The position numbers and the translations under genes were made by a program. From IMG/VR virus record IMGVR_UViG_3300031840_000546: a stretch of DNA of 57,186 nt, one strand, 5' to 3'. Of the stretch, positions 13,088-50,677 are shown one piece after another. Each line of letters opens with the position of its first letter. The stretch's first letter is position 1. Below the pieces are notes generated by a model that was given only the letters and a program-made list of their open reading frames with translations, made no database searches and was not told the origin of the DNA. This DNA is from an uncultured virus (IMG/VR IMGVR_UViG_3300031840_000546). Its lineage: Duplodnaviria > Heunggongvirae > Uroviricota > Caudoviricetes.

Positions 13088-15040
13088 ATGAGCGAACATT
13101 TACCAACACAATATCAAAACTTTATTCACCTTTCTCGTTACTCTCGATGGGTTCCCGAACAGGGACGAAGAGAAACATGGAACGAAACTGTAGCAAGATA
13201 TTTTGACTTCTTTGTTGAACACTTAGAAGAAAAATGTAACTACATTGTTCCCGCTGATGAAAGAAAAGAGTTAGAGAATGCAGTTTTAAATCTTGAGATC
13301 ATGCCTTCGATGAGAGCATTGATGACAGCAGGAGAAGCACTCAAGAGAGACAACGTTGCTGGTTATAACTGTTCATATGTTGCTGTGAATCGTCTACGTT
13401 CTTTTGATGAGATCTTATACATTCTCATGTGCGGAACAGGTGTTGGTTTCTCTGTTGAGCGTGGTGAAGTCGATCAACTTCCAATCATCGCAGAAGAGTT
13501 TCATGATACCGATACAACAATCGTAGTCGCAGACTCGAAGATCGGTTGGGCGAAGTCGTTCAAGGAATTGATTTCACTGTTGTCTATGGGTCAAGTTCCT
13601 GCATGGGACGTATCCAGAGTTCGTGCTGCTGGTGCAAGACTCAAAACTTTTGGTGGTAGATCTTCGGGACCAGAACCATTGGTTGACTTGTTTAACTTCA
13701 CAGTAGAAACATTCAAAAAGGCTGCTGGTCGTAGACTTACGACTATTGAGTGTCACGATATTGTATGCAAGATCGCTGAGATCGTCGTGGTTGGTGGTGT
13801 TCGTAGATCAGCACTTATCTCTCTCTCGTCGTTACAAGACGATAGAATGCGTGATGCAAAGTCTGGACAATGGTGGGTAACTGAACCACAAAGAGCCTTA
13901 GCAAACAACTCTGCAACATACGATGGTCCTGTTGAGGTTGGACAGTTTATGGAAGAATGGCTTGCATTGTATAAGTCAAAGAGTGGGGAACGTGGTATCT
14001 TCAACAGACAGGCTGCTAGATCCGCTTGTGATCGCATGTCAGAGTGGAGAAAGGGTGAAAATATTCTCCGTGACTCAAACCACAAGTTTGGTACAAATCC
14101 ATGCTCAGAGATCGTCCTACGCGACTGTGAGTTCTGTAATCTCACTGAAATTGTTGTGCGTGAAGGTGATACAAAAGCATCTCTGATGCGTAAAGCGAGA
14201 CTCGCTACCATTCTCGGAACATGGCAGTCTACTCTTACTGATTTTAGATACTTAGCCTCTTCGTGGAAAAAGAATTGCGAAGAAGAAAGGCTTCTCGGTG
14301 TTTCAATGACAGGAATCATGGACTGCAAACTTACGAATGGAAAAGGCGGTAATCGTCTTGATCAACTCTTGTCTGGTCTGAGAGATGAAGTTGTAAATGT
14401 AAACCGTGACTATGCGAACACTTTGGGTATACCACAGTCTGCTGCAACCACATGCGTAAAACCATCGGGAACCGTGTCTCAACTCGTAGACGCTGCGTCT
14501 GGTATTCATGCTCGTCACAACCCGTATTACATTCGCACAGTGAGAGCAGACAACAAAGATCCGCTGTGTCAGTTTATGAAAGACAAAGGTTTCCCCCACG
14601 AAGCATGTGTTATGAAACCTGATAACGTGACCGTGTTCTCTTTCCCAGTGAAAGCACCAGATAACTCTATCTTCAGAACAGACATGACTGCGATAGAACA
14701 GTTAGAGTTATGGTTGGTTTATCAAAAACAATGGTGCGAACACAAACCATCCGTAACGATTACAGTCAAGGAAAACGAGTGGCCTGAGGTTGGAAGTTGG
14801 GTTTGGAACAATCTAGACTACATTTCTGGTATTTCGTTCTTACCTCACTCTGACCATACTTATAAGCAAGCACCGTATCAAGACTGTGATGTGAAAGAAT
14901 ATAAAGAGTTATTGAAACAATTACCAACTGATGTTGATTGGACAGAGTTAAAAACATACGAGGAACAAGACAATACAGCAGGATCACAGACAATGGCCTG
15001 TTCTGGAGATTCGTGTGAAGTTGTAGATTTAACCACTTGA
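13088..15040 (+). CDS. nrdJ: Class II (adenosylcobalamin-dependent) ribonucleotide reductase, monomeric type
   Basis: MPSMRA, NCSY, GGVRRSA, NPCSE, TCVKPSGT, C-terminal CSGDSCE; no adjacent nrdB. Confidence 0.92.
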   Translation: MSEHLPTQYQNFIHLSRYSRWVPEQGRRETWNETVARYFDFFVEHLEEKCNYIVPADERKELENAVLNLEIMPSMRALMTAGEALKRDNVAGYNCSYVAVNRLRSFDEILYILMCGTGVGFSVERGEVDQLPIIAEEFHDTDTTIVVADSKIGWAKSFKELISLLSMGQVPAWDVSRVRAAGARLKTFGGRSSGPEPLVDLFNFTVETFKKAAGRRLTTIECHDIVCKIAEIVVVGGVRRSALISLSSLQDDRMRDAKSGQWWVTEPQRALANNSATYDGPVEVGQFMEEWLALYKSKSGERGIFNRQAARSACDRMSEWRKGENILRDSNHKFGTNPCSEIVLRDCEFCNLTEIVVREGDTKASLMRKARLATILGTWQSTLTDFRYLASSWKKNCEEERLLGVSMTGIMDCKLTNGKGGNRLDQLLSGLRDEVVNVNRDYANTLGIPQSAATTCVKPSGTVSQLVDAASGIHARHNPYYIRTVRADNKDPLCQFMKDKGFPHEACVMKPDNVTVFSFPVKAPDNSIFRTDMTAIEQLELWLVYQKQWCEHKPSVTITVKENEWPEVGSWVWNNLDYISGISFLPHSDHTYKQAPYQDCDVKEYKELLKQLPTDVDWTELKTYEEQDNTAGSQTMACSGDSCEVVDLTT

Positions 15041-15065
15041 CATCCATGTGAATCATATATATACT
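15037..15065 (+). promoter_or_regulatory. Sigma70-like promoter for the porin operon
   Basis: TTGACA-17bp-TATACT. Confidence 0.7.
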
Positions 15066-15129
15066 TTATCAACTCAAAGTTGAGTAAGGGGGGAGTTCAT
15101 CCCCCCTCAGTCTTAGAAAGGAGAAATTT

Positions 15130-15324
15130 ATGACTAAGACAAATACTACTGGTTGTTCCACGGAGTGTGGACAAGATTGCTTGAGCAAATTCCTTGCTCG
15201 TATCGGCTTCTGCCGTTCTACCCTTATTACCCTTGCTCTCGTTCCATTCGCTTGGGACGGTGTGACTTGGGCGATTGACGCTGTTAAGTCAGTGTTCGAT
15301 CTTGTTTCGGGGGTTGCTAACTAA
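15130..15324 (+). CDS. Small Cys-rich membrane-associated protein
   Basis: Strong SD (AAGGAG); CxxxCxxxC followed by a hydrophobic/amphipathic helix. Confidence 0.7.
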   Translation: MTKTNTTGCSTECGQDCLSKFLARIGFCRSTLITLALVPFAWDGVTWAIDAVKSVFDLVSGVAN

Positions 15325-16094
15325 TGAGTGTTCTTGCAACCACATTGTGTCTCTCTGCATTAACCGCTGCGGGAGACATCGAGTTTAGCGGTGTTGGTCA
15401 AACTGTCGTAACTTCCATTGATGGTGTTGAGACTTTGGATACCCGTCTGGTGCTTGGTGCATACGGCGAATCTAAAGGTGCTGTTTATGGTTTCTCTTTT
15501 GAAACCATCAACAATCTTGATGACACACAATTATGGGAAGCATATGTCGGTGCTGACTTCGGTGGTGTTGATGTCACCGTTGGTCGTTTCCAACGCAACT
15601 TTAGTGCTGAACTCGCATCGTCCGCATACACCTATGGTTTTGGTTTGACCAACTCCAGTGTGTTCGGGTTGGGCGGCGTCGTCGTTGACGGCGTTTCGTT
15701 CGGAGGTAACGTCGGTGACGCTTCCTTCTCTTTCGACATCGTGGGAGATGATGTCTTTGGTGACTCCGTTACTTACGGTGGTCGTGTTGAACTCGGAGCA
15801 TTAGGTTTCGGTTTCATCGGTGAGGAATTTGATGTTTGGACTGTTGACATTTCTGATGACAGTGGATTTATTTCCTACACTGACGACAACGGTGATTGGA
15901 CCGCTGTTGCACAGGGTGTGATTTTTACGGTAGAAGATACTTTCTCTGGCTACGGTCGGGTAGAGTATGATTATCTGGATGAAACCACATTTGCCGTTGG
16001 TGGTAAGTGTGAATTCCAAGATGGTGTTTCTGCCCTTGTTGAGTATGATGATCGTGACGAGGCAGTTCGTGCTGGTCTTAGATTCACATTCTAA
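15324..16094 (+). CDS. Outer-membrane beta-barrel porin-like protein
   Basis: Signal-peptide-like N-terminus, alternating beta strands, LWEAYV...VTVGRFQ motif seen in OprO/P-like porins, terminal GLRFTF beta-signal. Confidence 0.7.
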   Translation: MSVLATTLCLSALTAAGDIEFSGVGQTVVTSIDGVETLDTRLVLGAYGESKGAVYGFSFETINNLDDTQLWEAYVGADFGGVDVTVGRFQRNFSAELASSAYTYGFGLTNSSVFGLGGVVVDGVSFGGNVGDASFSFDIVGDDVFGDSVTYGGRVELGALGFGFIGEEFDVWTVDISDDSGFISYTDDNGDWTAVAQGVIFTVEDTFSGYGRVEYDYLDETTFAVGGKCEFQDGVSALVEYDDRDEAVRAGLRFTF

Positions 16095-16119
16095 CTGATC
16101 CTTGAGGATCACCTCTTCC

Positions 16120-16150
16120 AACACCCCCAAGAAATTGGGGGTGTTTTTTT
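16120..16150 (+). terminator. Rho-independent terminator
   Basis: AACACCCCCAA-GAAA-TTGGGGGTGTT followed by a T run. Confidence 0.9.
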
Positions 16151-16160
16151 ATGCTATTTA

Positions 16161-16204
16161 CTTATCAAACGCTAACCATCCCATAACGGTTTCTTTACAG
16201 CCTG
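16161..16204 (+). promoter_or_regulatory. Candidate Pho-box-like / OmpR-family direct repeat array
   Basis: cTTATCA, cTAACCA, aTAACGG, tTTACAG at exact 11-bp period, upstream of a gene with no obvious TTGACA. Confidence 0.4.
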
Positions 16205-16243
16205 ATGAATAAGTATTAAGTAAATGTAAAATAGGATATCAAT

Positions 16244-17845
16244 ATGACAAATCTTCTTATCGCTTTTGTTCTCTCAGCAAACATCGATGTCACTGAAGAC
16301 ATCGCAACATCGACAACTTGGACTGCTGACAATACTTATAACCTAACAAAACAAATCTATGTTTTGCCAGGTGCGTCTTTAACAATTGAAGCAGGAACAA
16401 TCATCGCATCCGAAGCAACTGCGAATGGTGCAGGTGGTTTATGTGTGACTAACGGCGCACAAATCTTTGTAAATGGAGAGCGACACGCACCAGTCGTGAT
16501 GACCTCAACCCTAGACGATGGAACTTGGAGAGCATCTGCAAACGAGTGGGGTAATCTTACACTTTGCGGTGATGCGTATATCGGATTCGATGGTGTGACA
16601 AACTCTGGAGGTTTTCCATCAAACACTCTGACACCAAGTGCATCCAATCAAGCAAATATGGAAGGTCTAGTCGAAACAGCAGGTAATCCATCTCTAAATA
16701 ATTATGGAGGTGGTGATGACGATTATGATGCAGGTAATCTATCTTATCTGTCTATTCGCTATGCGGGTAGAGTTGTCGGACTATCTAACGAACTCAATGG
16801 TTTGTCTCTTGGTGCTATTGGTCGGGATACGAAAATTCACCACATCGAGGTGATGAATAATGTCGATGACGGTATCGAGATTTGGGGTGGTACGGTTGAC
16901 CTAAAATATGTTTCCATTTGGAATGTCGGCGATGACTCGTTTGATGTTGATCAAGGTTGGAGAGGTCGGGCGCAGTTTGGTTTGATTGTGCAAGGTTACT
17001 CACGAAACGCTTCGCAAGGTTCTGGTCTTGGTGATAATATTTTTGAGTTTGATGGTGCAGAAAACTCTGACGCACAACCAAGAACTCGTGCAGCAATTTA
17101 TAACTTTACCACGATTGCCAACACTGAGTCAGGCGATGGTACAACAACTTGGAGAGACAACGCATCGGTTCAATTCCGAAACAACATCTTCATCGGAAAG
17201 GGCGACAAACTCGTTCGTGCTGATGGGGATGACGGAGATGGTTCTTCGGGGTATGGTCATAACGGGACTCTGACGCTCGCTGAACGCTTTGAGACTGATG
17301 CAGTGGGATCAAACGGGATTGCTTACATTGATCCTGTAAACTCTGGTGCTTCGTCCATGATGGACAGCCTGTATCAAGCACAAACCGATGGCAAACTTGC
17401 AGAATTGTCAAACAACATCATCTCTGGTTTTGGTGATATTTCCGATGACCCATACTACGACATCGTGCCTGCGTCAATGCGTGTTACAAATATTGAAACC
17501 GAAGAACTTCCGATTCGCTCACTGGTTCGTGCGCCAAGTGTTGTTGTCGGTGGTAAGTTTGTGAATGCTGTTGTGTCAATTGACCCGACACCGATTGACT
17601 CTGACATTATCACGACACCTGCTCCTGCACCTGCGAATGGTTTTTACTCACCCGTCACCTATCGTGGTGGTTTTGCTCCCGATGAAAACTGGTTGACTGG
17701 TTGGAGTGCCGCTGATGAGTTTGGTTTCTTGACAGGAACAGACGATAGCGATTGTGGAACTTGTAAGGGTGATGCAAATGCCGATGGTGTGGTTGGTTTC
17801 CTTGACCTGACTACCATTCTTGGAAACTGGGGATGCGAAGGCTAA
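16244..17845 (+). CDS. Secreted beta-helix surface protein with C-terminal dockerin-like domain
   Basis: TTWTADNTY.L...LTIEAGT, ELNGLSLG..G..T.IHHIEV.NN.DDGIE.WGG, DDSFDVDQGW, YRGGF....NWLTGW; tail CKGDANADGVVGFLDLTTILGNWG. Confidence 0.75.
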   Translation: MTNLLIAFVLSANIDVTEDIATSTTWTADNTYNLTKQIYVLPGASLTIEAGTIIASEATANGAGGLCVTNGAQIFVNGERHAPVVMTSTLDDGTWRASANEWGNLTLCGDAYIGFDGVTNSGGFPSNTLTPSASNQANMEGLVETAGNPSLNNYGGGDDDYDAGNLSYLSIRYAGRVVGLSNELNGLSLGAIGRDTKIHHIEVMNNVDDGIEIWGGTVDLKYVSIWNVGDDSFDVDQGWRGRAQFGLIVQGYSRNASQGSGLGDNIFEFDGAENSDAQPRTRAAIYNFTTIANTESGDGTTTWRDNASVQFRNNIFIGKGDKLVRADGDDGDGSSGYGHNGTLTLAERFETDAVGSNGIAYIDPVNSGASSMMDSLYQAQTDGKLAELSNNIISGFGDISDDPYYDIVPASMRVTNIETEELPIRSLVRAPSVVVGGKFVNAVVSIDPTPIDSDIITTPAPAPANGFYSPVTYRGGFAPDENWLTGWSAADEFGFLTGTDDSDCGTCKGDANADGVVGFLDLTTILGNWGCEG

Positions 17846-18471
17846 TCAGAACATTTGTTGCTTTCGTTCTTGGATTGGGATGCACAGCATTCTTCTTTAT
17901 GCTATTGCCTTTGCTTCAAGCAATCAACTCTCCGTTCCAAGGTGATTCCGTGGCACGAACGATGGAAATCGTCAGCGTTCCACCACCTCCACCGCCTCCG
18001 ATGGATGAACCCGATGACCCTGAACCAGAACCTGAACCAGATCCACCAAAAATGGATTCTACTCCTGAACCACTTGATATAAGTCAGTTAGAAGTTATGC
18101 TAAATCCTGGCTTTGGAGATTTTTTGAGTGGTGATTTCGGTGTCCAGTTGCAAAGTGCTATGTCCAGTAGTGAGGAAATGAATGAAATCTTCTCTTCGTC
18201 AGAACTTGATCAGAAGGCTCGTCGGTTGAGCGTAGTGCAGCCTCGTCTAACTTCTACCTTGTTACGTCAAGCACCTGCAACCGTGGTCGTAATCTTTATT
18301 GTTGATGAAAGTGGTCGGGTGCAAGATCCGAAAGTCCAACGCACCACGAATCCATCTTTCGACCGCTCTGCTCTTGCTGCAATCAAGCAGTGGAAGTTTG
18401 AGCCTGCTAAGGTTCAAGGTCGCTCTGTTTCAAGTCGTCTACGACAATCGTTCTCTTTCGAGAAAGGATAA
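17833..18471 (+). CDS. tonB: TonB-family energy transducer
   Basis: N-terminal TM helix, Pro-rich linker (PPPPPPP, EPEPEP), C-terminal VVVIFIVDESGRV..PKV...FDRSALAAIKQWKFEPA domain. Confidence 0.9.
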   Translation: MRRLIRTFVAFVLGLGCTAFFFMLLPLLQAINSPFQGDSVARTMEIVSVPPPPPPPMDEPDDPEPEPEPDPPKMDSTPEPLDISQLEVMLNPGFGDFLSGDFGVQLQSAMSSSEEMNEIFSSSELDQKARRLSVVQPRLTSTLLRQAPATVVVIFIVDESGRVQDPKVQRTTNPSFDRSALAAIKQWKFEPAKVQGRSVSSRLRQSFSFEKG

Positions 18472-18495
18472 CCATCCTTCGCATAAATAATTTAT

Positions 18496-19086
18496 ATGAT
18501 GAACCTTGCAGGAATAGATTATAGTCTCCGTGGTCCAGCGATTTGTATTTTCGCGGGTGACTATAATAAAACTTTTAGTTTCCAACAGTGTATGTTTTAC
18601 TTTTTGACCAACACAAAGAAACACGCACGGATGTATGGAGCAAACATCGCAGGGGATAGTTTTCAAATATTCATGGACGACTCAGAGAGATATGATTCTA
18701 TATCAGACTGGGCTATGGAAAAGATTCTACCAGTAGATCATGTATGTCTGGAGGGTTACGCTTACTCATCAAATAGTAATCGATTATTTCAGATCGCTGA
18801 GAATACTGGTGTGTTGAAGTTTAAAATATGGCAGAAGAGGTTACCGTTAAGCGTGACACCACCAAGTCAAATCAAAAAGTTTGCGACTGGTAAGGGTAAC
18901 GCGAATAAAGATGCGATGTATGAGGCGTTTAAAAAAGAAACTGACGTTGACTTGATGTCTCTTATAACACCATCGTCTAAGTCAGTCTCTAATCCTGTTT
19001 CAGATATTGTAGATTCTTATTATATCTGTAAGTATCTTTATACTACTTTGTCTCACGCGAACGCGCCCGACGCATCTGATACTTAA
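18496..19086 (+). CDS. RuvC-like Holliday junction resolvase (phage type)
   Basis: GIDYS, LEGYAY, ENTGVLK, KKFATGKGNA.KDAM, DIVDSYY. Confidence 0.8.
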   Translation: MMNLAGIDYSLRGPAICIFAGDYNKTFSFQQCMFYFLTNTKKHARMYGANIAGDSFQIFMDDSERYDSISDWAMEKILPVDHVCLEGYAYSSNSNRLFQIAENTGVLKFKIWQKRLPLSVTPPSQIKKFATGKGNANKDAMYEAFKKETDVDLMSLITPSSKSVSNPVSDIVDSYYICKYLYTTLSHANAPDASDT

Positions 19087-19113
19087 ACTCGTAATAATAC
19101 ATTCCCCCTGCTA

Positions 19114-19362
19114 TTAATACTGCGAGTATAACATAGTAGGGGTTAACCCTTTTTTTAACGCATCTTCCTCCATGCGATACATTGTGTCAACACCAAGAGC
19201 ATCACCAGCACCAATAAGGTCAGGTGTTTCTACTTGACTTGCAGATTCGAGTGTGTGAACTATTCGTGGTTGTCCGTCAATATCAATGTCAATGAAGGGT
19301 TCATCCCTCACACTCTTGACGCCTGCACAACCCACCAACAACATAACGAAAAGATATCTCAT
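19114..19362 (-). CDS. Small putative lipoprotein
   Basis: MRYLFVMLLVGC lipobox-like N-terminus. Confidence 0.55.
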   Translation of the reverse strand: MRYLFVMLLVGCAGVKSVRDEPFIDIDIDGQPRIVHTLESASQVETPDLIGAGDALGVDTMYRMEEDALKKGLTPTMLYSQY

Positions 19363-19571
19363 CGGGGGACACGCTGTTTCTTTTCAAAGAAAGTTTTACC
19401 CCGTGGTTCTGGTACTCTATTTCGTTGCACAGGCTTTTCTGCTTTCTTCATCACTCTATTATGGAAACGTTCTTTCATTTCAGAGACACCGTGTTTATGT
19501 CCTGCGACTAAACCGATTCCTAAACCCAAAAAGAAGATACAAATTCTTTTTAAAACTACATTGTTGTTCAT
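19359..19571 (-). CDS. Small membrane-anchored basic protein
   Basis: One N-terminal TM helix, basic tail, coupled to the downstream gene. Confidence 0.55.
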   Translation of the reverse strand: MNNNVVLKRICIFFLGLGIGLVAGHKHGVSEMKERFHNRVMKKAEKPVQRNRVPEPRGKTFFEKKQRVPR

Positions 19572-36854: not shown

Positions 36855-39029
36855 TTAGGCTGCGGAGATCGTATCGATCACTCGGTTGATCAGGTTGCGA
36901 CTCGCAGACTTCTTCGCGGCACCCTTCATGAATGCGTTGCGAACTTTGGTGAGTGAGTCACTAGCAGTCACCTTGTCGAATGCTTCGTCTGCATTCACGA
37001 CGGGCTGTGCTTTGATGTCGATCCACTCGGAGAATCCACGGGTCCAAGTCCGAGCAGCCCAACCTTCTTTTTTCCATTGGTCTTGCAGATCGACCATGTT
37101 GCACTGCTTGGATTCGGTCAAGAAGAGGTTGATGACCTTACCGCTGATCTTCTGAGTGAGCATCTTGGCGAGGGTATCTTGGACACCGCGATATGAATCT
37201 TCGACCACGACTTGAGTTTTGTTCGCATCGTCAGCGATGATGCAGTCACCACTACCGTAGAACGAACCGTGACCGTCACCATCGGTGACGAAGATGCTGT
37301 GGGCGATTTGTGATCGCGTAGCGGCTTGGAACTCGTTGACCAGCGAAGCGGCGGAAACCAAAGCACTGTGGAGAGGAGTACCACCAAGTCCAAGTTGACG
37401 ATGGGCTTGCATATCTTCCCACATTGGGGCAACACCGTTGTATTCGCAGTGATGACCAGCGTTGCATGCCATCATCCAGAGGTTGAGCAGACCACGCTCG
37501 AAGGCACGCTTGTTCATGCGGCTGTCAACGAATTCGAGAAGAGCGAAACCATCATGGCAGCATGCTTCTTCGCCAGCATTCCATTCGGGCTTGTTATCAG
37601 CATCCCAGTTGAATCGGTCGGAGAAGGCGACAACGCGGAAGTCGATACCAGCCTTTTTGCAGAAATCGACTTGGTTCACAACCTGTTGCATGGAAGGCAT
37701 GAGAATCTCACGCATCGAAGCGGACCAGTCCAAGAAGAACACGATGCAGTGTGACTTACCATCGGCGACTTCGGTTTGGGAAAGGAAGATGTCATCATTG
37801 AACTTGTAGGAGTGAACTTTGTTGATGTCCAACCGACCAGTCTTCGAAGTTTCGGTACGCTTCCATTCGTCAGCAGCACACTTACGTTGGAACTGTTGAA
37901 CCATTTGGTTCACGATCTTCTTGGAGTCGTTACGGAATTGCGTGAGGTTTGCACGGCAGGCGTCTTCGTTCTTGGTCACTCCGATGATCTTGGTGAGATC
38001 AGCAGAAGAAACCACGAACTTCTCAGCAGACTCTTGGGGGAACACTTTGTATTGAGTGTCGTTTTCCTGCATAGGTCGCTTGGCGGAACGAGTTTGGGCA
38101 GCGAGATTGTCGTTCATCGCATCGCTGGTGGAACCGATGGTCGTACCCTTACCACCTTCGCCTTGCTGGCTACCAGCGCCAGGAGCGTCACCCTCTTCGC
38201 CTTCGGCAGAAGTACCATCGTCTTCGCCGTCTTCGGCGGATTCCATAGTACCTTCACCTTTGGATTCACCAGCGTTGTCACCTTCGGCATCGTCACCTTC
38301 GGATTCGCCTTGACCGTTACCAGCATCACCAGACTCGCCGTCCTGTTCACCGTCTTGGTCCATAGACTGACCAGCAGCATCGCTGTTGATAGTTTCACCT
38401 TCACCTTCACCTTCACCTTGTTCGGCTTCGCCTTGATCGTCGTTCTGCATATCCTCTTGGGCAGCATCGTACAATTCACGGGCGAGGGCGATCACATCAT
38501 CGAACGATTTGTTCGCGGTGAATCGGTCGAGGATCGCACGCTCTTCGGCAGAGAAAGGCACATCCATGAATGGACCGATCTTGAAGTGGATGTTTGCACG
38601 ATCCATAAAATGCAATTCGGAAACGTCTTTACCAGCGATGTTGAAAAGATCGTTCTCGGCGAATCGTTCGTAACCAACGTGGAAGTCTCGTCGCAAGCCA
38701 GGAAACTTTGCCTTGATCATGCGTTCGATACGCTCGTCTTCGATGATGTTCACCACACGTTGGAACAAAGCCTTGTCACCATCGAACGCATCGATGGTAG
38801 CACCCCAAACGTCGGCAGGAGTGTAGAGGGCGTGGGCGACTTCGTGACCGATCAACATGTCGTATTGATTACGATTCATGTTTTCCCAAACGGGCAAAGT
38901 AAGAACACGCGATTCCAAATCGAACGATGCGGTTTGGGCGGACGAATCTTGACGAACGATAATGTTCTCAGTCGCAAGGCAGCGAGAGAGAACCGAGAGA
39001 GAATCCAACGATGATTTAGCAATAGTCAT
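36855..39029 (-). CDS. CobT-like protein: N-terminal HEXXH metallopeptidase-like domain, acidic linker, vWA domain
   Basis: LATENI, TASFD...RVL.LP.W, GHEVAHALYT, ED.RIER; vWA MIDAS DWSASM, GGTPL, FVTDGDG. Confidence 0.85.
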   Translation of the reverse strand: MTIAKSSLDSLSVLSRCLATENIIVRQDSSAQTASFDLESRVLTLPVWENMNRNQYDMLIGHEVAHALYTPADVWGATIDAFDGDKALFQRVVNIIEDERIERMIKAKFPGLRRDFHVGYERFAENDLFNIAGKDVSELHFMDRANIHFKIGPFMDVPFSAEERAILDRFTANKSFDDVIALARELYDAAQEDMQNDDQGEAEQGEGEGEGETINSDAAGQSMDQDGEQDGESGDAGNGQGESEGDDAEGDNAGESKGEGTMESAEDGEDDGTSAEGEEGDAPGAGSQQGEGGKGTTIGSTSDAMNDNLAAQTRSAKRPMQENDTQYKVFPQESAEKFVVSSADLTKIIGVTKNEDACRANLTQFRNDSKKIVNQMVQQFQRKCAADEWKRTETSKTGRLDINKVHSYKFNDDIFLSQTEVADGKSHCIVFFLDWSASMREILMPSMQQVVNQVDFCKKAGIDFRVVAFSDRFNWDADNKPEWNAGEEACCHDGFALLEFVDSRMNKRAFERGLLNLWMMACNAGHHCEYNGVAPMWEDMQAHRQLGLGGTPLHSALVSAASLVNEFQAATRSQIAHSIFVTDGDGHGSFYGSGDCIIADDANKTQVVVEDSYRGVQDTLAKMLTQKISGKVINLFLTESKQCNMVDLQDQWKKEGWAARTWTRGFSEWIDIKAQPVVNADEAFDKVTASDSLTKVRNAFMKGAAKKSASRNLINRVIDTISAA

Positions 39030-39035
39030 GCTTTT

Positions 39036-39062
39036 ATTTTAACATAACTACCTGTATTGCAA
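39036..39062 (-). promoter_or_regulatory. Promoter, probably leaderless, for the vWA gene
   Basis: TTGCAA-15bp-TAAAAT (TGn extended)-6bp-ATG; no SD. Confidence 0.55.
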
Positions 39063-39079
39063 GGGTTTTCTGGGCGAAA

Positions 39080-39096
39080 CTGACACAATCTGTCAG
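39080..39096. promoter_or_regulatory. Palindromic operator-like site, copy 1
   Basis: CTGACA-caatc-TGTCAG. Confidence 0.65.
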
Positions 39097-39220
39097 GATT
39101 GCGGGATCTGAGGGGTCCATGTCGCAAAACAACACGCTATCAACTATCAACTTTTTGTTCGGGTTCTGTTAGGGTGCTGAGAAACCGCGTTTACAGCCTG
39201 CCAGAGGGGTTTTTGGGAGA

Positions 39221-39237
39221 CTGACAGAATGTGTCAG
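39221..39237. promoter_or_regulatory. Palindromic operator-like site, copy 2
   Basis: CTGACA-gaatg-TGTCAG; its reverse complement matches copy 1 at 16 of 17 bases. Confidence 0.65.
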
Positions 39238-39266
39238 TTTGGGGGTGATTTTTTCGAAGATTAGCC

Positions 39267-39294
39267 TTGAGGTCTATTTGGGGTTTATTAAACT
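39267..39294 (+). promoter_or_regulatory. Promoter, probably leaderless, for the AAA+ gene
   Basis: TTGAGG-16bp-TAAACT-6bp-ATG; no SD. Confidence 0.55.
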
Positions 39295-39300
39295 AGACGT

Positions 39301-40599
39301 ATGACTACTTTTAAACTTCGTAACTTGTCCGCCCGTCAATCCAAATTCGTCCGCGCCCTCGCCGCTCACGGTGTGCGTGGTCCTGTCGTTTCCCGTCAGG
39401 AATTGAAGTCCGTTTGTGATGCTTCGGGCATCTACGCTTGCCCCCCGTCTTGGATCACTCAAGATTCTGGTCGTGCTTTGGACATGCGTGGCGAATATGA
39501 TCTTCCCGAACTGGTTGAATTGATCTCCGCCGAAGGTGTTCCCCAATTGGTCCGTGACACTGACGAAGAACTTGCCCCCTTGCCCGCTCCCCCATCCACC
39601 ATCGGTTTGCAGGGTGGTGCAAATGCACCTACCCCCGCCGCTATCAACGCGCCTGCTGCCGCTTCCGCGAATCTCGCTGCGAGCATTATGGGTGCTACTG
39701 GTGGTGATCGTGCTACCCTCATTCCCGACAAAATCAAAACCTACGTGCCTTGGGGTCACTTCGATTCGATCAAGAAAATTATCGATTCGAACATGTTCTA
39801 CCCTGTGTTCGTTACTGGTCTTTCTGGTAACGGTAAGACCACTGGTATCGAGCAAGCGTGTGCCGCTGCTGGTCGTGAGTGTTTCCGCGTGAACATCACC
39901 AAAGCCACTGACGAAGATGATCTGCTCGGTGGTTTCCGTTTGATCGATGGTGAAACCAAGTTTGTTTACGGTCCCGTGGTCGAAGCCATGAAGCGTGGTG
40001 CCGTTCTTCTTCTCGATGAAATCGACCTCGCTGGTCTGGGTATCATGTGCCTTCAATCTGTTCTCGAAGGTAAGGGTGTGTTCCTTAAGAAAACCAACGA
40101 ATGGATTACCCCCGCTGCTGGTTTCACCGTGTTCGCCACTGCCAACACCAAGGGTAAAGGTAGCGACGATGGACGATTCATCGGTACTGGTGCGATGAAC
40201 GAAGCCTTCTTGGACCGATTCCCCGTGACGATGGAACAGGAGTACGCTCCGCGATCCACCGAGAAGAAGATCGTTCGCAAGGCGATGAAATCTCTGGGAT
40301 GCGATGACGAAGCGTTCGCTATCAACCTCACCAAGTGGGCTGATACCATTCGCAAATCATTCTACGAAGGTGCGGTTGACGAAATCATCACCACCCGACG
40401 TTTGATCGACATCGTGAAAGCGAACGCGATCTTCGGAGACAAAATGACCGCGATCAACATGGCGGTTTCCCGATTCGATGACGAAACCAAAGAGGGTTTC
40501 ATCTCACTCTACACTAAGATCGATGCCGAAGTAGTCATGGCAGACGAGAGTGAAACCCCATCGGAAGGTGGTGCGTCTTCGGACTGCCCTTTCGAATGA
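39301..40599 (+). CDS. cobS: CobS-like MoxR-type AAA+ ATPase
   Basis: GLSGNGKT, RVNIT..TDEDDLLGGFRL, LLDEID, ATANTKGKGSDDGRF.G...NEAFLDRF, matching the T4-like phage 'CobS' family. Confidence 0.92.
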   Translation: MTTFKLRNLSARQSKFVRALAAHGVRGPVVSRQELKSVCDASGIYACPPSWITQDSGRALDMRGEYDLPELVELISAEGVPQLVRDTDEELAPLPAPPSTIGLQGGANAPTPAAINAPAAASANLAASIMGATGGDRATLIPDKIKTYVPWGHFDSIKKIIDSNMFYPVFVTGLSGNGKTTGIEQACAAAGRECFRVNITKATDEDDLLGGFRLIDGETKFVYGPVVEAMKRGAVLLLDEIDLAGLGIMCLQSVLEGKGVFLKKTNEWITPAAGFTVFATANTKGKGSDDGRFIGTGAMNEAFLDRFPVTMEQEYAPRSTEKKIVRKAMKSLGCDDEAFAINLTKWADTIRKSFYEGAVDEIITTRRLIDIVKANAIFGDKMTAINMAVSRFDDETKEGFISLYTKIDAEVVMADESETPSEGGASSDCPFE

Positions 40600-40838
40600 T
40601 GCTGGATTCTCTCCAGCCAGGAGAGAAACCAGCGTTTGAAGTCGTCATTGGCTATAAGGATAAGAATGGCGTCGAGCAGCATTGTGGTAAACGAATCGCC
40701 TCTTTCGCTCGATGGAATACCCAACGCCGATCGTGGATGTTCACCGACCCACAATCGCTCGAAGATTTCAGCCACCTTGTGAATGGTTTGAACTACACTT
40801 GGATCAACCCACCACAAATTTCCAAAATTGCATGTTGA
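40596..40838 (+). CDS. Hypothetical protein
   Basis: ATGA overlap with the AAA+ stop. Confidence 0.55.
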   Translation: MMLDSLQPGEKPAFEVVIGYKDKNGVEQHCGKRIASFARWNTQRRSWMFTDPQSLEDFSHLVNGLNYTWINPPQISKIAC

Positions 40839-40862
40839 CAGCCCTAGCCCGAAAGGTAAAAT
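40835..40862 (+). promoter_or_regulatory. Sigma70-like promoter, probably leaderless
   Basis: TTGACA-16bp-TAAAAT-6bp-ATG(40869). Confidence 0.7.
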
Positions 40863-40868
40863 AAACAC

Positions 40869-41150
40869 ATGACTTACGCAGAACGCTGTGACTGGGAGGA
40901 CGGGATTCACCAAGACGATCCCACCATCCTCGAAACCCTCTCCGAAATCGCTATCAACGACGATCCCGACGATGAGGATCTCGATGCCATCGAACTGGAC
41001 GATGACGAATACTTCGATCTCGAAGCCGATGTTCACGACGAACACTGGGATCCGTACGATCTGGAAGATCGCCTCATGGACGAACACGGAGTGACCGCAG
41101 AAGGATTCGCTTATCTTGCGGACGAAGACCGAGCGGGGAACTTCGTATGA
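40869..41150 (+). CDS. Very acidic small protein
   Basis: About 35 D/E versus 3 R and no K in 93 aa. Confidence 0.75.
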   Translation: MTYAERCDWEDGIHQDDPTILETLSEIAINDDPDDEDLDAIELDDDEYFDLEADVHDEHWDPYDLEDRLMDEHGVTAEGFAYLADEDRAGNFV

Positions 41151-45840: not shown

Positions 45841-46341
45841 ATGCTTGAGTTTGATTATACACTTGATTATGACAAAATCGATTTTTCGAATCAACCTGAA
45901 CTATATAGAATCGGTAGAGGAGAACAGGGGGTACTTTTAGTTGAACCATACAAATCAAAAATCTGTAAACACTGGAGATTCCGTACACCAGAAATTGCAT
46001 ATAAATCAGCGAATACTATTACTGCTATGTTCAATGGGTATTTGGATGTGGGTGATTTTGTTGGGGCTGACATGTCTCGCAAGTTTCTTATGATGGGATG
46101 GACGCGAGCAAGACGCTATGCAAATCATCGAAGCGGAAAGAAGTATGACAATCAGGGTAGAATCAAACCTCAAGAGTTAGATCACATGACTTGTGATAAA
46201 GCGGAGTCTGCACGAATCTTCAAACGTGCTTACGATGCTGCACGAACAGATAAAAGATATCGAACGATGGTTCGTGAATGGAGACAGTTAGAAGAACAAC
46301 GCGCCGTGGGAGGAACTGGCATTTCTCAGTACGACTTATAA
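45841..46341 (+). CDS. DUF4385-family protein
   Basis: YRIGRGEQGVL.VEPYKS.I..HWRF.TP..A..S...DM.RKFL.MG.TRARRYANH. Confidence 0.85.
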   Translation: MLEFDYTLDYDKIDFSNQPELYRIGRGEQGVLLVEPYKSKICKHWRFRTPEIAYKSANTITAMFNGYLDVGDFVGADMSRKFLMMGWTRARRYANHRSGKKYDNQGRIKPQELDHMTCDKAESARIFKRAYDAARTDKRYRTMVREWRQLEEQRAVGGTGISQYDL

Positions 46342-46386
46342 TCGTGTAAACTTGGTTCGATTCCAAGACGGCGTACTAGGAGTTTT

Positions 46387-46758
46387 ATGATGAATAGAAA
46401 ACCAACAATTTATGTTGCAGGACCAATGCGTGGTCACCACGATTATAACTATCCTGCATTTGACCGACAGACGCGGGTGCTTCGCGCCCAAGGTTGGGAT
46501 GTAGTAAATCCCGCAGATATGGATCGAACGCAGTTTCAACCAGACAGCGATCCGAATGACTTCAATCCAGATATTAATTATGAGGATCAGGAGTTTATGC
46601 GAGATGCATTGAAACGAGACATGGTGGCGATTTGTGATAAATGCACTGCCATTTATATGATGGCAGGATGGGAATCCTCAAAGGGTGCAAAAGCCGAACA
46701 CGCACTTGCAAAGGCACTTGCACTGGAAGTCTTCTACGAAGCGCCACTTCCAAAATAA
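46387..46758 (+). CDS. DUF4406 / nucleoside-deoxyribosyltransferase-like protein
   Basis: IYVAGPM.G...YN.PAF...V.NPA...C.AIYM..GWE.S.GA.AE. Confidence 0.85.
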   Translation: MMNRKPTIYVAGPMRGHHDYNYPAFDRQTRVLRAQGWDVVNPADMDRTQFQPDSDPNDFNPDINYEDQEFMRDALKRDMVAICDKCTAIYMMAGWESSKGAKAEHALAKALALEVFYEAPLPK

Positions 46759-46761
46759 GTC

Positions 46762-46789
46762 TTGACATACAATCTCGCAAGACTACAAT
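46762..46789 (+). promoter_or_regulatory. Sigma70-like promoter upstream of tRNA-Lys
   Basis: TTGACA-16bp-TACAAT. Confidence 0.65.
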
Positions 46790-46907
46790 ACATGGAACTA
46801 ATGATTAAAGGTATGGTTCGGGCACGACAAAAAACATGCTGATTTGACAACGTTTCAATAAATGTTGTTAAGGTAGCAGGGAGGACACTTCCTGACTACC
46901 AATTCTG

Positions 46908-46980
46908 GATCTCGTAACTCAGTTGGTAGAGTAACGGACTTTTAATCCGTGAGTCGTGGGTTCGAGCCCCACCGAGATCA
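46908..46980 (+). tRNA. tRNA-Lys(UUU)
   Basis: Cloverleaf: GATCTCG/CGAGATC acceptor, ACGGA-CTTTTAA-TCCGT anticodon arm, GTTCGAG T-loop; no encoded CCA. Confidence 0.95.
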
Positions 46981-47004
46981 TAGTCGTTCATAAGGAGAAC
47001 TATA

Positions 47005-47250
47005 ATGGAAATTACTATCCCTCTGGAAACTGTTGTCGTTGTATGCGGAAGTATCGGTTTGGTTTCATATCTCATTCGTAGATGTGAACGCCGAATCAAA
47101 AGTTATGTTGATGATCAGGTTACTACGGCGTATGATAATCTTTATGGCACTGATGATGAAATCAATCGCCGTATTGATGAAGAAATTCACAGCCTTCGCA
47201 TTCAAATCGCAAAAGAAGAAAATTCAAAAGTTTCTCAACTTAATGGTTGA
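47005..47250 (+). CDS. Membrane-anchored coiled-coil protein
   Basis: SD TAAGGAG; N-terminal TM. Confidence 0.65.
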   Translation: MEITIPLETVVVVCGSIGLVSYLIRRCERRIKSYVDDQVTTAYDNLYGTDDEINRRIDEEIHSLRIQIAKEENSKVSQLNG

Positions 47251-47274
47251 CACTTTTTTTAAACTTGTTAAACT
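47247..47274 (+). promoter_or_regulatory. Sigma70-like promoter
   Basis: TTGACA-16bp-TAAACT-6bp-ATG(47281). Confidence 0.7.
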
Positions 47275-47280
47275 AAACAC

Positions 47281-47634
47281 ATGTCAGCGACAAAGACTAA
47301 CGGTGGGTCGAGTCGCTCAATGTTGAAAACACCGAAAAGGATTTTGATTATGTCCAACAATCTCTCTAAGAAGCGTCGTTTGATCAACTACCTCTACAGC
47401 GGTGGTGGTAAGAACAAGGGTATCACTACTAACGAAGCACGTGCCAAGTTTGGTATTGCAAACCTTCGTGCTACCATTAGCGATGTGAAGTCGATGGTCG
47501 AAGCGTTCGGAAACTGGGAAATCGTTTCCGAAGAAACTTCAACGGGTAAGACTCGTTACTTCATGGTGGACACCCACCCAGGCAACCGTACCTACGGTTA
47601 CGCCCAAGACGGTTCCCGTTTTATGATGGCTTGA
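47281..47634 (+). CDS. Winged-helix DNA-binding protein (alternative start 47350)
   Basis: LINYL..G...IT..EARAKFGI.NLRATISD...GKTRY pattern. Confidence 0.7.
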   Translation: MSATKTNGGSSRSMLKTPKRILIMSNNLSKKRRLINYLYSGGGKNKGITTNEARAKFGIANLRATISDVKSMVEAFGNWEIVSEETSTGKTRYFMVDTHPGNRTYGYAQDGSRFMMA

Positions 47635-47740
47635 GTTAGTCATCGATATCACAGAAGTGGGTTGAAAGACCCACCTCTGTTCTAGCCCTCGGGCGACAAT
47701 CGAATATGAATCATGGAGTGAGTTTGATCACTTCGCTCCA

Positions 47741-47894
47741 GCCTGGTGACTGAAAATGTTTTCGTCATGCGGACAAAGGTACTCGTTCCCGCGTCAACGG
47801 TCAAGTGACTGAGATAGGATAGACGAGGTTCTAGTAGGGATATAGCAGCAGTGTGATCCCGAACGATGGTGGTAAACTGAACTCCACCCCAGGC
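47741..47894 (+). ncRNA. Structured ncRNA candidate (manA-like?)
   Basis: Closing stem GCCTGG/CCAGGC enclosing several hairpins in a gene-free gap; GTGACTGAA and GGTGGTAAACTGAACTCCACC segments reminiscent of phage manA RNAs. Confidence 0.45.
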
Positions 47895-47945
47895 ACGAAT
47901 CACTGAATAGGGTCGAAGTAGGGGATGCCTTCGGCCCTATTCTCA

Positions 47946-47953
47946 TATAAATA
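47946..47953 (+). promoter_or_regulatory. T4-type late promoter upstream of hsp20
   Basis: TATAAATA directly after a long hairpin (47905-47942). Confidence 0.65.
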
Positions 47954-48010
47954 ATGTGAGTTGCTGATGTTCAGGACTCAAGTATTACTCGCTTAGAAAA
48001 GGAGAAAAGA

Positions 48011-48433
48011 ATGATTAATACACAACATTTTGTCGGTCTGTCGGAAAAATTTTGGGAAGACATCAATTGGTTTGAATCCCTGTCACGAAGCACACAAACA
48101 TTTCCGCCGTATGACCTTTTACGAATTGATGAAGATAACGCAGTCTTGGAGTTTGCTCTTGCTGGATATGATAAAGAAACAATTGATATTACTGTTAAGC
48201 CTACTGAAACAAATGTTCGCATTCTCGAAGTTTGTGGAGGAGCAAGTGATGATGAGAACGCTGAGGAATCATATGAGCATCGAGGAATCGCACGCAGAAA
48301 GTTTACTGCAAGAATCCCACTCTCACAATACTGGGAAGTTTCTGATGCAAAAATGAGTAATGGAATCTTGTCTGTGAATCTTCATAGAAATGTTCCAGAA
48401 GAAAAGAAACCAGTTACAATTTCAATCAAATAA
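48011..48433 (+). CDS. hsp20: Small heat-shock protein
   Basis: FPPYD, LEFALAGY, HRGIARRKF, A.M.NGILSV.L.R.VPEEKKP..I.I. Confidence 0.95.
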   Translation: MINTQHFVGLSEKFWEDINWFESLSRSTQTFPPYDLLRIDEDNAVLEFALAGYDKETIDITVKPTETNVRILEVCGGASDDENAEESYEHRGIARRKFTARIPLSQYWEVSDAKMSNGILSVNLHRNVPEEKKPVTISIK

Positions 48434-48498
48434 CACTTGGGACTGATGAGAGAAATCTTATCAGTTCTTTTATTGACAACACTCTGAAAGAAGGTACA

Positions 48499-48663
48499 AT
48501 GAGCGCAGGTAAAGGTGATACATATCGAAAAGTAAACCAGAGTAAATGGGATGAAAATTGGGAGAAGGTTTTCGGTGATAAGCACAGGAAAAGACACACA
48601 CAATCAAATGCAAAAAGCGTACCTCAAGGGAAAAAGAAATCCACTTCCCGTGGTAAGCGTTGA
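48499..48663 (+). CDS. 54-aa basic peptide (not in ORF track)
   Basis: MSAGKGDTYRKVNQSKWDENWEKVFG..., a GKG..R....ENW..IFG pattern common in T4-like phages. Confidence 0.6.
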   Translation: MSAGKGDTYRKVNQSKWDENWEKVFGDKHRKRHTQSNAKSVPQGKKKSTSRGKR

Positions 48664-48705
48664 TACTAAGAAGTGGATTCAAGAGTTGAAGAAAAAGGAT
48701 TCAAA

Positions 48706-49035
48706 ATGAGTGAAGTAAAAATTGTTCGTGTTCACAGTGGTGAAGAGTTGATCGGTCAAGTTACAGAAACCGATACAGGTATTCATATTGATAAGCCTGC
48801 AATTATTTTACCTGCTGGTGAAGGTCGTATTGGTCTTGCTCCATACCTTCCTTATGGTGATGCAGAAGAGAATGGTGTAGACTTCAAGGATATTCATGTC
48901 GTGTTCATGATGAATCCTGTCGAAGAGTTTCGTAATCAATACACACAATCATTCGTAAATGGTTTGACGATTCCAACTGCTGCTGAGTCTGCCGCTATCA
49001 ACGCTGCTGACGGTTTGAAGTTGACGACTGACTAA
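48706..49035 (+). CDS. Conserved T4-like small Sm-like protein
   Basis: VKIVR..SGEELIG...P......IGLAPYLPY. Confidence 0.75.
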   Translation: MSEVKIVRVHSGEELIGQVTETDTGIHIDKPAIILPAGEGRIGLAPYLPYGDAEENGVDFKDIHVVFMMNPVEEFRNQYTQSFVNGLTIPTAAESAAINAADGLKLTTD

Positions 49036-49175
49036 TGGCTAGGTTAACTAATTCACAACAGGCGCATGTCCAACGTCTTCTTAAAGGTGGAAAGACACGC
49101 AAGAGTAAAGTCAAAGCAAAAGCATCTCGTTCAAGAACATCACGTTCTGGTAATGGTTCGAGACTGAAGTATTAA
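49035..49175 (+). CDS. 46-aa basic peptide (not in ORF track)
   Basis: MARLTNSQQAHVQRLLKGGKTRKSKVKAKASRSRTSRSGNGSRLKY; TAATG coupling. Confidence 0.5.
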   Translation: MARLTNSQQAHVQRLLKGGKTRKSKVKAKASRSRTSRSGNGSRLKY

Positions 49176-49181
49176 TCTTCG

Positions 49182-49254
49182 GCTCTCGTAGCATAACGGA
49201 TAATGCAACTGACTTCTAATCAGTAGATTGCAGGTTCGAATCCTGCCGAGAGCG
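49182..49254 (+). tRNA. tRNA-Arg(UCU)
   Basis: GCTCTCG/CGAGAGC acceptor; ACTGA-CTTCTAA-TCAGT; GGTTCGAATCC. Confidence 0.95.
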
Positions 49255-49271
49255 TTCCTTCGGAGGGCAGA

Positions 49272-49344
49272 TCCCCAATAGTTCAGTTGGTAGAACAATC
49301 GGCTGTTAACCGATATGTCGCAGGTTCGAGTCCTGCTTGGGGAG
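49272..49344 (+). tRNA. tRNA-Asn(GUU)
   Basis: TCCCCAA/TTGGGGA acceptor; ATCGG-CTGTTAA-CCGAT; GGTTCGAGTCC. Confidence 0.95.
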
Positions 49345-49357
49345 TTTAAAAAATGAC

Positions 49358-49386
49358 TTGACATGTAACGTTCAACTCGTTACACT
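49358..49386 (+). promoter_or_regulatory. Sigma70-like promoter
   Basis: TTGACA-17bp-TACACT followed by SD AAGGAG. Confidence 0.65.
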
Positions 49387-49404
49387 TTTGAAAAGGAGAT
49401 TATT

Positions 49405-49569
49405 ATGAAAGATACACTCGCAAAAATTTGTTACGGTCTTGGTTTTGGATCTATCGCCTTCTCAGTTTTCGCCTATTCCGCATGGGGTATTGATGAAGCC
49501 ACTTACGTTGGTCTGTGGGTTCCTTCATTCTTCCTTGTTGGTTTTTTCTTTGAGCGTTCTGATGCCTAA
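49405..49569 (+). CDS. 54-aa two-TM membrane protein (not in ORF track)
   Basis: MKDTLAKICYGLGFGSIAFSVFAYSAWGIDEATYVGLWVPSFFLVGFFFERSDA; SD AAGGAG. Confidence 0.65.
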   Translation: MKDTLAKICYGLGFGSIAFSVFAYSAWGIDEATYVGLWVPSFFLVGFFFERSDA

Positions 49570-50543: not shown

Positions 50544-50605
50544 TCTGCTGATATGGAATCGACTGGATGTAGCAACTGATACACCAAAGATTTTATACGC
50601 TTTTA

Positions 50606-50677
50606 GCCAACGTAGCACAACGGTAGTGCAGTTCACTTGTAATGAACAGGTTGCTGGTTCGAATCCAGTCGTTGGCT
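50606..50677 (+). tRNA. tRNA-Thr(UGU)
   Basis: GCCAACG/CGTTGGC acceptor; GTTCA-CTTGTAA-TGAAC; GGTTCGAATCC. Confidence 0.95.

Follow-up and report, generated by a model that had tools for sequence, protein, structure and literature searches.

A TonB and beta-helix gene pair of apparent planctomycetal origin, inserted behind a predicted porin gene in a T4-like marine phage

Why should a phage carry, among its replication genes, a predicted outer-membrane barrel, a secreted beta-helix protein and a TonB? The question is raised by the uncultured virus record IMGVR_UViG_3300031840_000546 of IMG/VR, a stretch of 57,186 nucleotides (nt) that is referred to as the window and to which all coordinates apply. 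The window encodes a family B DNA polymerase (PolB), a RecA/UvsX-like protein, a DnaB-like helicase, a primase, gp32, a dUTPase, ThyX and NrdJ, and is that of a phage with a T4-type replication module. An earlier reading of the DNA, made from the sequence alone (the original prediction), had drawn attention to 15037..18471, where four open reading frames (ORFs) between nrdJ and a RuvC-like gene were taken as a single cassette for uptake across the host envelope. All four ORFs are borne out, and the view of them as phage-borne genes directed at the envelope is supported. The single cassette did not survive: the region is made of two units of different origin, a phage-core pair with its terminator (small64 and barrel; Unit A, 15037-16152) and a separately acquired, variably present two-gene insertion (bh533 and TonB; Unit B, 16153-18481).

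What the insertion may do is best approached through where its genes come from. With confidence that is evenly balanced, we read the pair as a supplement to the only Ton-dependent uptake system of the host. The combined findings suggest that the phage tunes the uptake machinery of its host during infection.

Origin of the bh533 and TonB genes

The beta-helix protein, bh533, has no match of its own in PHROGs, NCBIfam or the Pfam models searched, among which PF28492 was not included, and the same holds for small64 and for barrel (the latter with none at E ≤ 0.1). Its assignment comes from its relatives. A search returned 1871 homologues at E ≤ 1e-3, and PF28492, which is Beta_helix_4 according to the Atlas, is annotated on all 120 of those listed, including one that is 91% identical to bh533; Beta_helix_4 is likewise assigned to every member (100%) of the nearest Atlas clusters. 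On this precomputed annotation of homologues, as distinct from direct scoring of the protein, bh533 very likely belongs to Beta_helix_4.

The secreted beta-helix and the beta-barrel folds proposed from the sequence are both borne out by AlphaFold2 (pLDDT 82 and 88, respectively). The bh533 model (pTM 0.86) is a right-handed beta-helix, which VIA-align matches to 132 chains at Z ≥ 8; the PL6 alginate lyase 7dmk is matched at Z 20.4 (root-mean-square deviation 3.9, 290 residues aligned), and phage tailspikes, alginate epimerases (AlgE4) and NosD at Z of about 20. Foldseek against the PDB found none at E ≤ 1e-3 for bh533. The envelope reading had been made to depend on barrel and bh533 having relatives other than virion-structural proteins, and their homologues are indeed not virion-structural. 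A protein search against phages yielded three weak matches (about 30% identity) to the N-terminal part of bh533, all in uncultured phages. One of these, at 80368-81072 of the 635-kb uncultured marine megaphage LR745206.1, is a 31% match to the N-terminal half of bh533; in the available part of the source, the same megaphage is reported to encode a SusC-like TonB-dependent transporter (TBDT) (PMC9723777).

The overlapping downstream gene encodes a 212-aa (amino acid) protein that reads as a full-length TonB, as predicted, with a membrane anchor, a Pro-rich spacer and a C-terminal domain. The C-terminal domain is confirmed by two profiles, TonB_C (PF03544) at 4.9e-13 (49.8 bits, cut-off 24.6; residues 149-210) and TIGR01352 at 3.1e-12 (46.7 bits, cut-off 27.1). 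A hydrophobic stretch at about residues 7-28 and a Pro/Glu/Asp run at about residues 50-72, both read from the sequence, align with the corresponding parts of host TonB.

The closest cellular relatives of both proteins are encoded in marine Phycisphaera/Phycisphaerae metagenome-assembled genomes (MAGs), with 73-77% identity for bh533 and 84% for TonB. In the bh533 tree, the six distinct phage sequences group together (SH-aLRT 100) inside a larger clade, likewise supported at 100, with five MAG sequences; the phage TonBs join those of loci L049 and L050, from the same MAGs, in a clade with support of 100. Identity and phylogeny thus show that bh533 and TonB derive from a marine Phycisphaerae (Planctomycetota) lineage, and by gene similarity a marine planctomycete of the Phycisphaerae is likely to be the host of the phage.

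In the host, the two genes belong to an operon of nine, which in L049 runs in the order Beta_helix_4, a 403-aa TPR-like protein, a 1028-aa TBDT (CarboxypepD_reg, Plug and barrel domains), DUF3450 (TtpB), a large MotA/ExbB-like protein (TtpC-like), ExbB, ExbD, TonB and a TPR protein (TtpD). The beta-helix gene was followed in 45 cellular loci. The flanking sequence retrieved contains one or more Ton genes in 42 of them and the first eight operon genes in full in 31, where the order is conserved; two arrangements occur. The gene neighbourhoods of cellular homologues had been proposed as a check, and they trace the beta-helix protein and TonB to a host TBDT-ExbBD-TonB locus. The phage carries only genes 1 and 8 of the operon, which lie towards its opposite ends: the host homologues are not adjacent, being about 8 kb apart or in reverse order. 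None of the other seven genes, comprising those for ExbB, ExbD, TtpB, TtpC, TtpD and the TBDT among others, has a match in the 454 kb made up by the window and 46 phage loci. Lacking a TBDT and ExbBD, the phage must rely on the host copies, as had been anticipated. In each of the four closest MAGs (2.0-2.4 Mb), the operon supplies the only TonB_C gene; three of the MAGs have two TBDTs, and the fourth, whose assembly is fragmented, shows three PF00593 matches.

The C-terminal tail of bh533 can be followed into the same genomes. The protein begins with a short signal peptide, which aligns with equally short ones of the host proteins, and ends with a single EF-hand/dockerin-like loop. Its earlier description as dockerin-tailed holds for this one loop and not for a type I dockerin with two calcium-binding repeats: Pfam Dockerin_1 gives no match to the phage tail even at E ≤ 10, and it scores the host tail at 14.1 bits (cut-off 22.9), over profile positions 2-17 of 57 only. 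Dockerin_1 is annotated on 21% of the members of the nearest Atlas cluster of bh533. Searched alone, the tail matches two to four other ORFs in each candidate host genome, and it seems to be a common C-terminal module on several host proteins. We note that one ORF with a dockerin-like tail adjoins a gene for a PiT-like permease in all four MAGs (G002:C12:58906-60138 and its equivalents in G003-G005).

The operon does not evolve evenly. Among near-clonal host MAGs (loci L049, L050 and L047), the synonymous divergence (dS) is 0.09-0.32 for the TBDT, DUF3450, ExbB and ExbD, and about 2.4, that is, saturated, for TonB and the terminal TPR gene; in one of the comparisons it is 0.59 for the beta-helix gene and 1.31 for the TPR-like gene. 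The value for the large ExbB between L049 and L050 was dropped as a frame artefact; by tblastn, this pair is 98% identical. The host operon is therefore a mosaic, and the phage genes are one from each of its fast-evolving ends. Phage TonB alleles are about as distant from the host alleles as the host alleles are from each other.

One reading of this pattern, which we consider unlikely, is that in the sole Ton machine of streamlined marine Phycisphaerae the specificity ends are formed by the beta-helix protein and TonB, which evolve fast and can be exchanged. Phage and host would draw them from a common allele pool, and the mobile pair would re-programme which substrate (or which competing phage) passes the TBDT. 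Recombination between phage and host would then drive the saturated divergence at the operon ends between near-clonal hosts. Under the same unlikely reading, TonB would contact the conserved N-terminal strand of the mature beta-helix protein, which would make the latter a new kind of TonB client.

Mobility, selection and integrity of the inserted pair

Scans of IMG/VR recovered 9 loci for bh533, 26 for barrel and 10 for TonB. The most direct comparison is with L034, a close sibling of the window phage (nrdJ 94.5% and ruvC 96% identical), the sequence of which is contiguous across the insertion site; in the window, the insertion begins right after the T-run of the terminator behind barrel. The interval from barrel to ruvC is visible in 24 contigs, of which three contain bh533 and TonB, two bh533 only, seven a gene for a PiT-like permease of about 315 aa, and twelve neither. 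In L008, the overlapping bh533/TonB pair lies amid unrelated genes, and the part in common with the window is exactly 16244-18464. The dS of the pair is 0.3-1.0 between phages in which nrdJ and ruvC are saturated. The bh533 and TonB genes thus move as a unit between phage backbones. An identical 9-nt word occurs at 16173-16181 and 18469-18477, near both ends of the insertion, with the right copy overlapping the TonB stop codon; it could have arisen by chance.

The ratio of non-synonymous to synonymous substitution (dN/dS, or omega) between phages is 0.11 for bh533 and 0.05 for TonB, the lowest of the set, and both genes are under purifying selection; a ratio near 1, named beforehand as the mark of decaying genes, was not found. 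Every invariant column of the family alignments is kept in the phage bh533 and TonB, and in the window itself all 120+ invariant positions of the bh533 family alignment are intact. The GC content at third codon positions is 0.36-0.37 in the pair, against 0.32-0.42 in the phage backbone and 0.53-0.66 in the host, which shows that the genes have ameliorated to phage composition over a long residence in phages. Cellular origin, flanking phage genes on one contig and purifying selection, the traits of an auxiliary, host-derived phage gene, are found together in this pair.

The overall GC content of the cassette, 0.46 compared with about 0.40 in the flanking phage genes, and the existence of truncated variants are what an assembly chimera, or a piece of host DNA decaying without function, might have left. 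The junctions, however, recur in several independent IMG/VR contigs. At least 86% of the sampled words of a 3.8-kb stretch are present in 10 DNA sequencing runs from 6 studies beyond the possible source, and contigs of two such runs, from two other studies, span every junction with 0-2 differences. A chimeric assembly, which the original prediction had listed as a way to be wrong, is excluded by this recurrence, and with intact reading frames, phage-like third positions and omega values of 0.05-0.11, we regard the explanation by chimera or junk as refuted and its residual probability as negligible.

The phage tailspike depolymerases and polysaccharide lyases that are numerous among the fold matches of bh533 (Z 15-20) raise another explanation, namely that bh533 is a secreted depolymerase serving the phage, which would clear capsule or holdfast glycans for release or against re-adsorption, and that TonB is a co-captured passenger. 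Two phages, L003 and L005, keep bh533 and have lost TonB, as this would allow. We nevertheless find it improbable. Because the two genes are non-adjacent in the host, accidental co-capture needs a precise deletion or two separate events; the supposed passenger has the lowest omega of all; the pair moved jointly into its second context in L008; and the cellular family is tied to TBDT/Ton operons, in the 42 loci counted above, and not to capsule loci.

Superinfection exclusion, or interference with a receptor, is a tentative alternative that we hold to be unlikely. In this view, the TBDT complex of the host would be the receptor of the phage or of its competitors, whose entry would draw on TonB energy. 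The beta-helix protein would mask or remodel this receptor, and phage TonB would compete with host TonB for ExbB/ExbD, so that later phages are blocked. Precedents for the parts exist, as Cor and Llp block FhuA, and T1 and phi80 need TonB. The genes carried by the phage come from fast-evolving operon ends, a pattern to be expected if parts that are exposed, or exploited by phages, were caught up in an arms race; the cytoplasmic N-terminus of phage TonB is shortened, and the patchy presence of the cassette among sibling phages is typical of exclusion genes. Yet phage TonB by itself would not stop TonB-dependent entry, and the retention of invariant positions together with strong purifying selection along the whole length is expected of working copies, not of decoys. 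A permease-like transporter in the same slot of sibling phages also fits uptake better than exclusion.

The small64-barrel unit and the surrounding locus

The coordinates of the locus are collected in Table 1. In Unit A, small64 has four Cys residues in its N-terminal part, a single hydrophobic helix and a strong AGGAG ribosome-binding site upstream, and its family comprises 15 clusters. Wherever a related locus extends over this position, small64 immediately precedes barrel, and its stop codon overlaps the barrel start. The two genes stand as a pair between nrdJ and ruvC in 28 of 28 barrel-bearing viral contigs, a count that includes two contigs with divergent barrels that were found through bh533. 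Unit A is a conserved, early-type transcription unit that is core to this group of T4-like marine phages.

Table 1. Features of the locus between nrdJ and the RuvC-like gene (window coordinates)
Feature	Position	Strand	Description
nrdJ	13088-15040		B12-type ribonucleotide reductase (PHROG, 2e-188); flank of the region
sigma-70-like promoter	15037..15065	+	two hexamers with a 17-nt spacer, upstream of small64
small64	15130..15324	+	64-aa protein; ORF confirmed
barrel	15324..16094	+	256 aa, ends in Phe; 1-nt overlap with small64
intrinsic terminator	16120..16152	+	11-bp stem, 4-nt loop, T-run; closes the small64-barrel unit
insertion	16153..18481	+	2,329 bp relative to the cargo-less sibling L034; 91-nt leader, bh533 and TonB
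bh533	16244..17845	+	533-aa secreted right-handed beta-helix protein, very likely Beta_helix_4 (PF28492); host-derived as judged from its relatives
TonB	17833..18471	+	212 aa; 13-nt overlap with bh533
RuvC-like resolvase gene	18496-19086		other flank of the region

The barrel model (pTM 0.80) has 16 strands, a signal-like N-terminal helix (residues 2-13) and a long beta5-beta6 loop (residues 91-119) with a short helix, which is located at the place expected for the L3 constriction loop. Foldseek matches the model to 184 PDB chains at E ≤ 1e-3. The top matches are all 16-strand porins with a probability of 1.0, among them the R. blastica porin (8e-11, TMq 0.67), OmpU, Omp-Pst, OmpF/C and Omp32, and the predicted structure is that of a 16-strand general porin. 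All 20 family members compared end in the same Phe. The protein is strongly acidic, with an isoelectric point of 4.05 and 42 Asp/Glu compared with 10 Lys/Arg, and its omega between phages is about 0.15.

By sequence, barrel belongs to a tiny family that is so far virus-only. The family amounts to 23 clusters among 5.8 billion proteins, and an exhaustive profile search of 1.84 billion proteins (1.84e9) returned 18 representatives, mostly fragments; every member comes from a contig that is short or of viral size, and the closest Atlas clusters are entirely viral (100%). Searched with the barrel profile, the four candidate host MAGs yielded nothing, but as they are incomplete, absence from the host is unproven. 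Any tie to the phosphate-selective porins OprO/OprP, which have a basic (Arg/Lys) channel, is faint. A Porin_O_P signal appears in 3 of 20 family members at E ≤ 10, the best at 1.3e-3 and below threshold, Porin_O_P is annotated on 27% of the members of its Atlas neighbours, and the best match in BFVD is a phage protein labelled Porin O/P. Other uncharacterised phage proteins with a porin fold are present in BFVD.

The barrel of L003 (5017-5868) is only 33-35% identical to that of the window and has a longer signal peptide and extra loops, whereas the nrdJ of the same phage is 79% identical; barrel thus changes far more rapidly than the genes around it. On a contig of 2 kb, a predicted protein of 403 aa (P0133) combines 78% identity to barrel, over 84% of the barrel length, with a PF28492 annotation, and may be a fusion or a gene-calling artefact.

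The original prediction had supplied the cassette with its own promoter and an internal terminator. Both sites are present; a single promoter for all four genes is not supported. The promoter-like site at 15037-15065 matches at 11 of 12 positions and is the best of nine such sites in 14800-19400. Since shuffled sequences give 8.5 ± 3.4 sites, the count itself shows no excess and only the quality of this site stands out. Terminator-like sites are enriched in the region, with 12 found against 3.6 ± 2.2 expected from shuffles, and the hairpin at 16120-16145 is kept in sibling phages including L034, with one compensatory pair (A-T to G-C). The leader between the promoter-like site and the ribosome-binding site of small64 holds a G6/C6 hairpin with a 7-nt loop at 15088-15106, read by eye and followed by no T-run.

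Elsewhere in the window, a collagen-repeat protein is encoded at the very start (3-1163) and six tRNA genes are clustered at 46301-50755. A GC-rich stretch at 37000-41000 (GC 0.51 versus about 0.40 elsewhere) contains a 724-aa ORF without a Pfam match, which also lacks a match in the four candidate host MAGs, and an AAA_5 ATPase. The nearest record, G001, is an overlapping fragment that is 100% identical to the window, and a DNA search against known phages gave similarity in the ribonucleotide reductase only.

Proposed role, substrate and known systems

Phosphate or vitamin B12 had been put forward as the nutrient. For the TBDT of the host operon, the nearest subfamily is the Xanthomonas/Caulobacter type, which scores 211 bits (cut-off 310). 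Transporters of that type are associated with the uptake of carbohydrates, and a pectate-lyase-like partner such as the beta-helix protein would be in keeping with this. The second TBDT of the host adjoins a metal-type ABC transporter; no cobalamin riboswitch was found at the Rfam gathering threshold in the 10 kb around it, and BtuB models score it far below cut-off. With no riboswitch near this second TBDT and BtuB similarity that stays below threshold, B12 specificity is unsupported, and phosphate specificity of the bh533/TonB pair has no direct support. The nearest subfamily of the operon TBDT, the acidic barrel and the Porin_O_P similarity below threshold likewise lend neither nutrient direct support. 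What stands of the proposed envelope remodelling for nutrient uptake is the origin in a host Ton locus, without the named nutrient; superinfection exclusion, the alternative already offered with it, stays as the tentative rival weighed above.

A phosphate theme does appear, at the level of sequence similarity, in the sibling phages. In the slot behind barrel, seven of them (L022, L023, L028, L029, L031, L033 and L036) encode the multipass membrane protein of about 315 aa mentioned above (at 4453-5400 in L022), which resembles PiT permeases (Pfam PHO4 at E 5e-3, below cut-off; the phosphate transporter 6l85 of the PDB at E 2.3e-4). Despite differing backbones, the seven phages encode proteins that are 94-99% identical to one another, and a homologue with 42-43% identity is present in every candidate host MAG.

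As a mechanism, we propose that during infection the phage tops up two components of the only Ton-dependent uptake system of its host. The beta-helix protein would be a surface or secreted component that captures, or depolymerises, a substrate, most likely a glycan-derived one. Together with phage TonB, it would work with the TBDT, ExbB/ExbD and Ttp proteins of the host, by which nutrient import would be kept running. The small64 product would be a small inner-membrane protein, and the porin would be inserted in the host outer membrane, where it would raise passive permeability. TonB is limiting and unstable in model bacteria. The logic would be that of cyanophage psbA, with the phage supplying labile parts of a host machine.

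Several observations weigh against this proposal. Compared with the host ORF, phage TonB is shorter by about 10 residues at its cytoplasmic N-terminus, and, from work in E. coli, an extra TonB without extra ExbB/ExbD could be inert or inhibitory. The family profile of bh533 finds no sequence relative in the PDB at E ≤ 1, and its fold is common to lyases, hydrolases, epimerases, adhesins and tailspikes; as the fold matches span this many activities, the fold class of bh533 is clear and its activity is not. Phages can do without the cassette, and in some lineages it is decaying: L005 retains no more than about 30 nt of tonB and L003 nothing of it, and in L002 a deletion of about 240 nt across the junction removes the tail of bh533 and the anchor of TonB. 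The host assignment comes from gene similarity alone, to MAGs that are incomplete. In addition, contigs from RNA libraries are a weak hint of expression and may be DNA carry-over. They cover 6 of 30 bins in X16 and 16 of 30 in X17, uncovered bins being uninformative, and comprise parts of barrel in two libraries and, in one of these, also parts of bh533 and the bh533/TonB junction.

If the uptake proposal is true, viral control of organic-matter uptake in the sea extends to active transport across the outer membrane. The genes link a widespread group of marine T4-like phages to the Phycisphaerae, in a phylum with very few known phages. They also single out two of the nine genes of a conserved, uncharacterised planctomycetal TBDT operon as worth carrying, which points to limiting or specificity-determining parts. 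Moreover, an orphan phage porin family is defined, and behind its gene lies a recombination hot spot that gathers genes for envelope transport, the TonB pair and the PiT-like permease.

Cyanophage psbA and pstS are host-derived auxiliary genes with which phages supply parts of a host machine. The bh533/TonB pair is like them in being host-derived, located among replication genes, under purifying selection and ameliorated, and in supplying only some subunits. It differs in that the machine is TonB-dependent and spans to the outer membrane, that two non-adjacent operon genes are joined as an overlapping pair, and that the presumed host is a planctomycete.

Phage-borne general porins are known from enterobacterial prophages, namely Lc of phage PA-2 and NmpC, which are close OmpC homologues in temperate phages. 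Like these, barrel is encoded by a phage, has a 16-strand porin fold in the model and would be targeted to the outer membrane of the host. Unlike them, it has no detectable cellular sequence relative, is 256 aa long and very acidic, and is a core gene in a T4-like replication module. Our literature search for phage-encoded porins and prophage porins found nothing relevant. With Cor and Llp, the locus would share the feature of early phage genes that act on a TBDT-type receptor; those are small lipoproteins, to which TonB and the beta-helix protein are unrelated.

The host operon can be compared with the TonB2 and TonB3 systems of Vibrio, described in the available part of the source as TtpB(DUF3450)-TtpC-ExbB-ExbD-TonB-TtpD (PMC6957404). 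By Pfam and NCBIfam annotation of L049, it has the same six-gene energising core in the same order and, like the TonB3 type as described there, a receptor gene at the head of the core; relative to the Vibrio systems in that description, it adds the Beta_helix_4 and TPR-like genes.

The module had been judged not to be a standard phage auxiliary system, and this agrees with the literature searched, in which neither a phage TonB with an operon partner nor the planctomycetal operon nor the porin family is described. The nearest cases, as given in the available parts of two reports, are ExbB in Lentisphaerae phages (PMC11361711) and SusC-like TBDTs in marine megaphages (PMC9723777), each listed as a putative auxiliary metabolic gene. 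As in those cases, single components of Ton uptake are phage-encoded, and they are read there as boosting carbohydrate uptake. In the parts available, the two reports give annotations only, with no phage TonB, operon of origin or paired surface protein, whereas origin, selection and mobility are documented here. In sum, the bh533/TonB pair can be placed among the host-derived, putative auxiliary metabolic genes for uptake, to which it adds a full-length phage TonB together with the operon from which it came.

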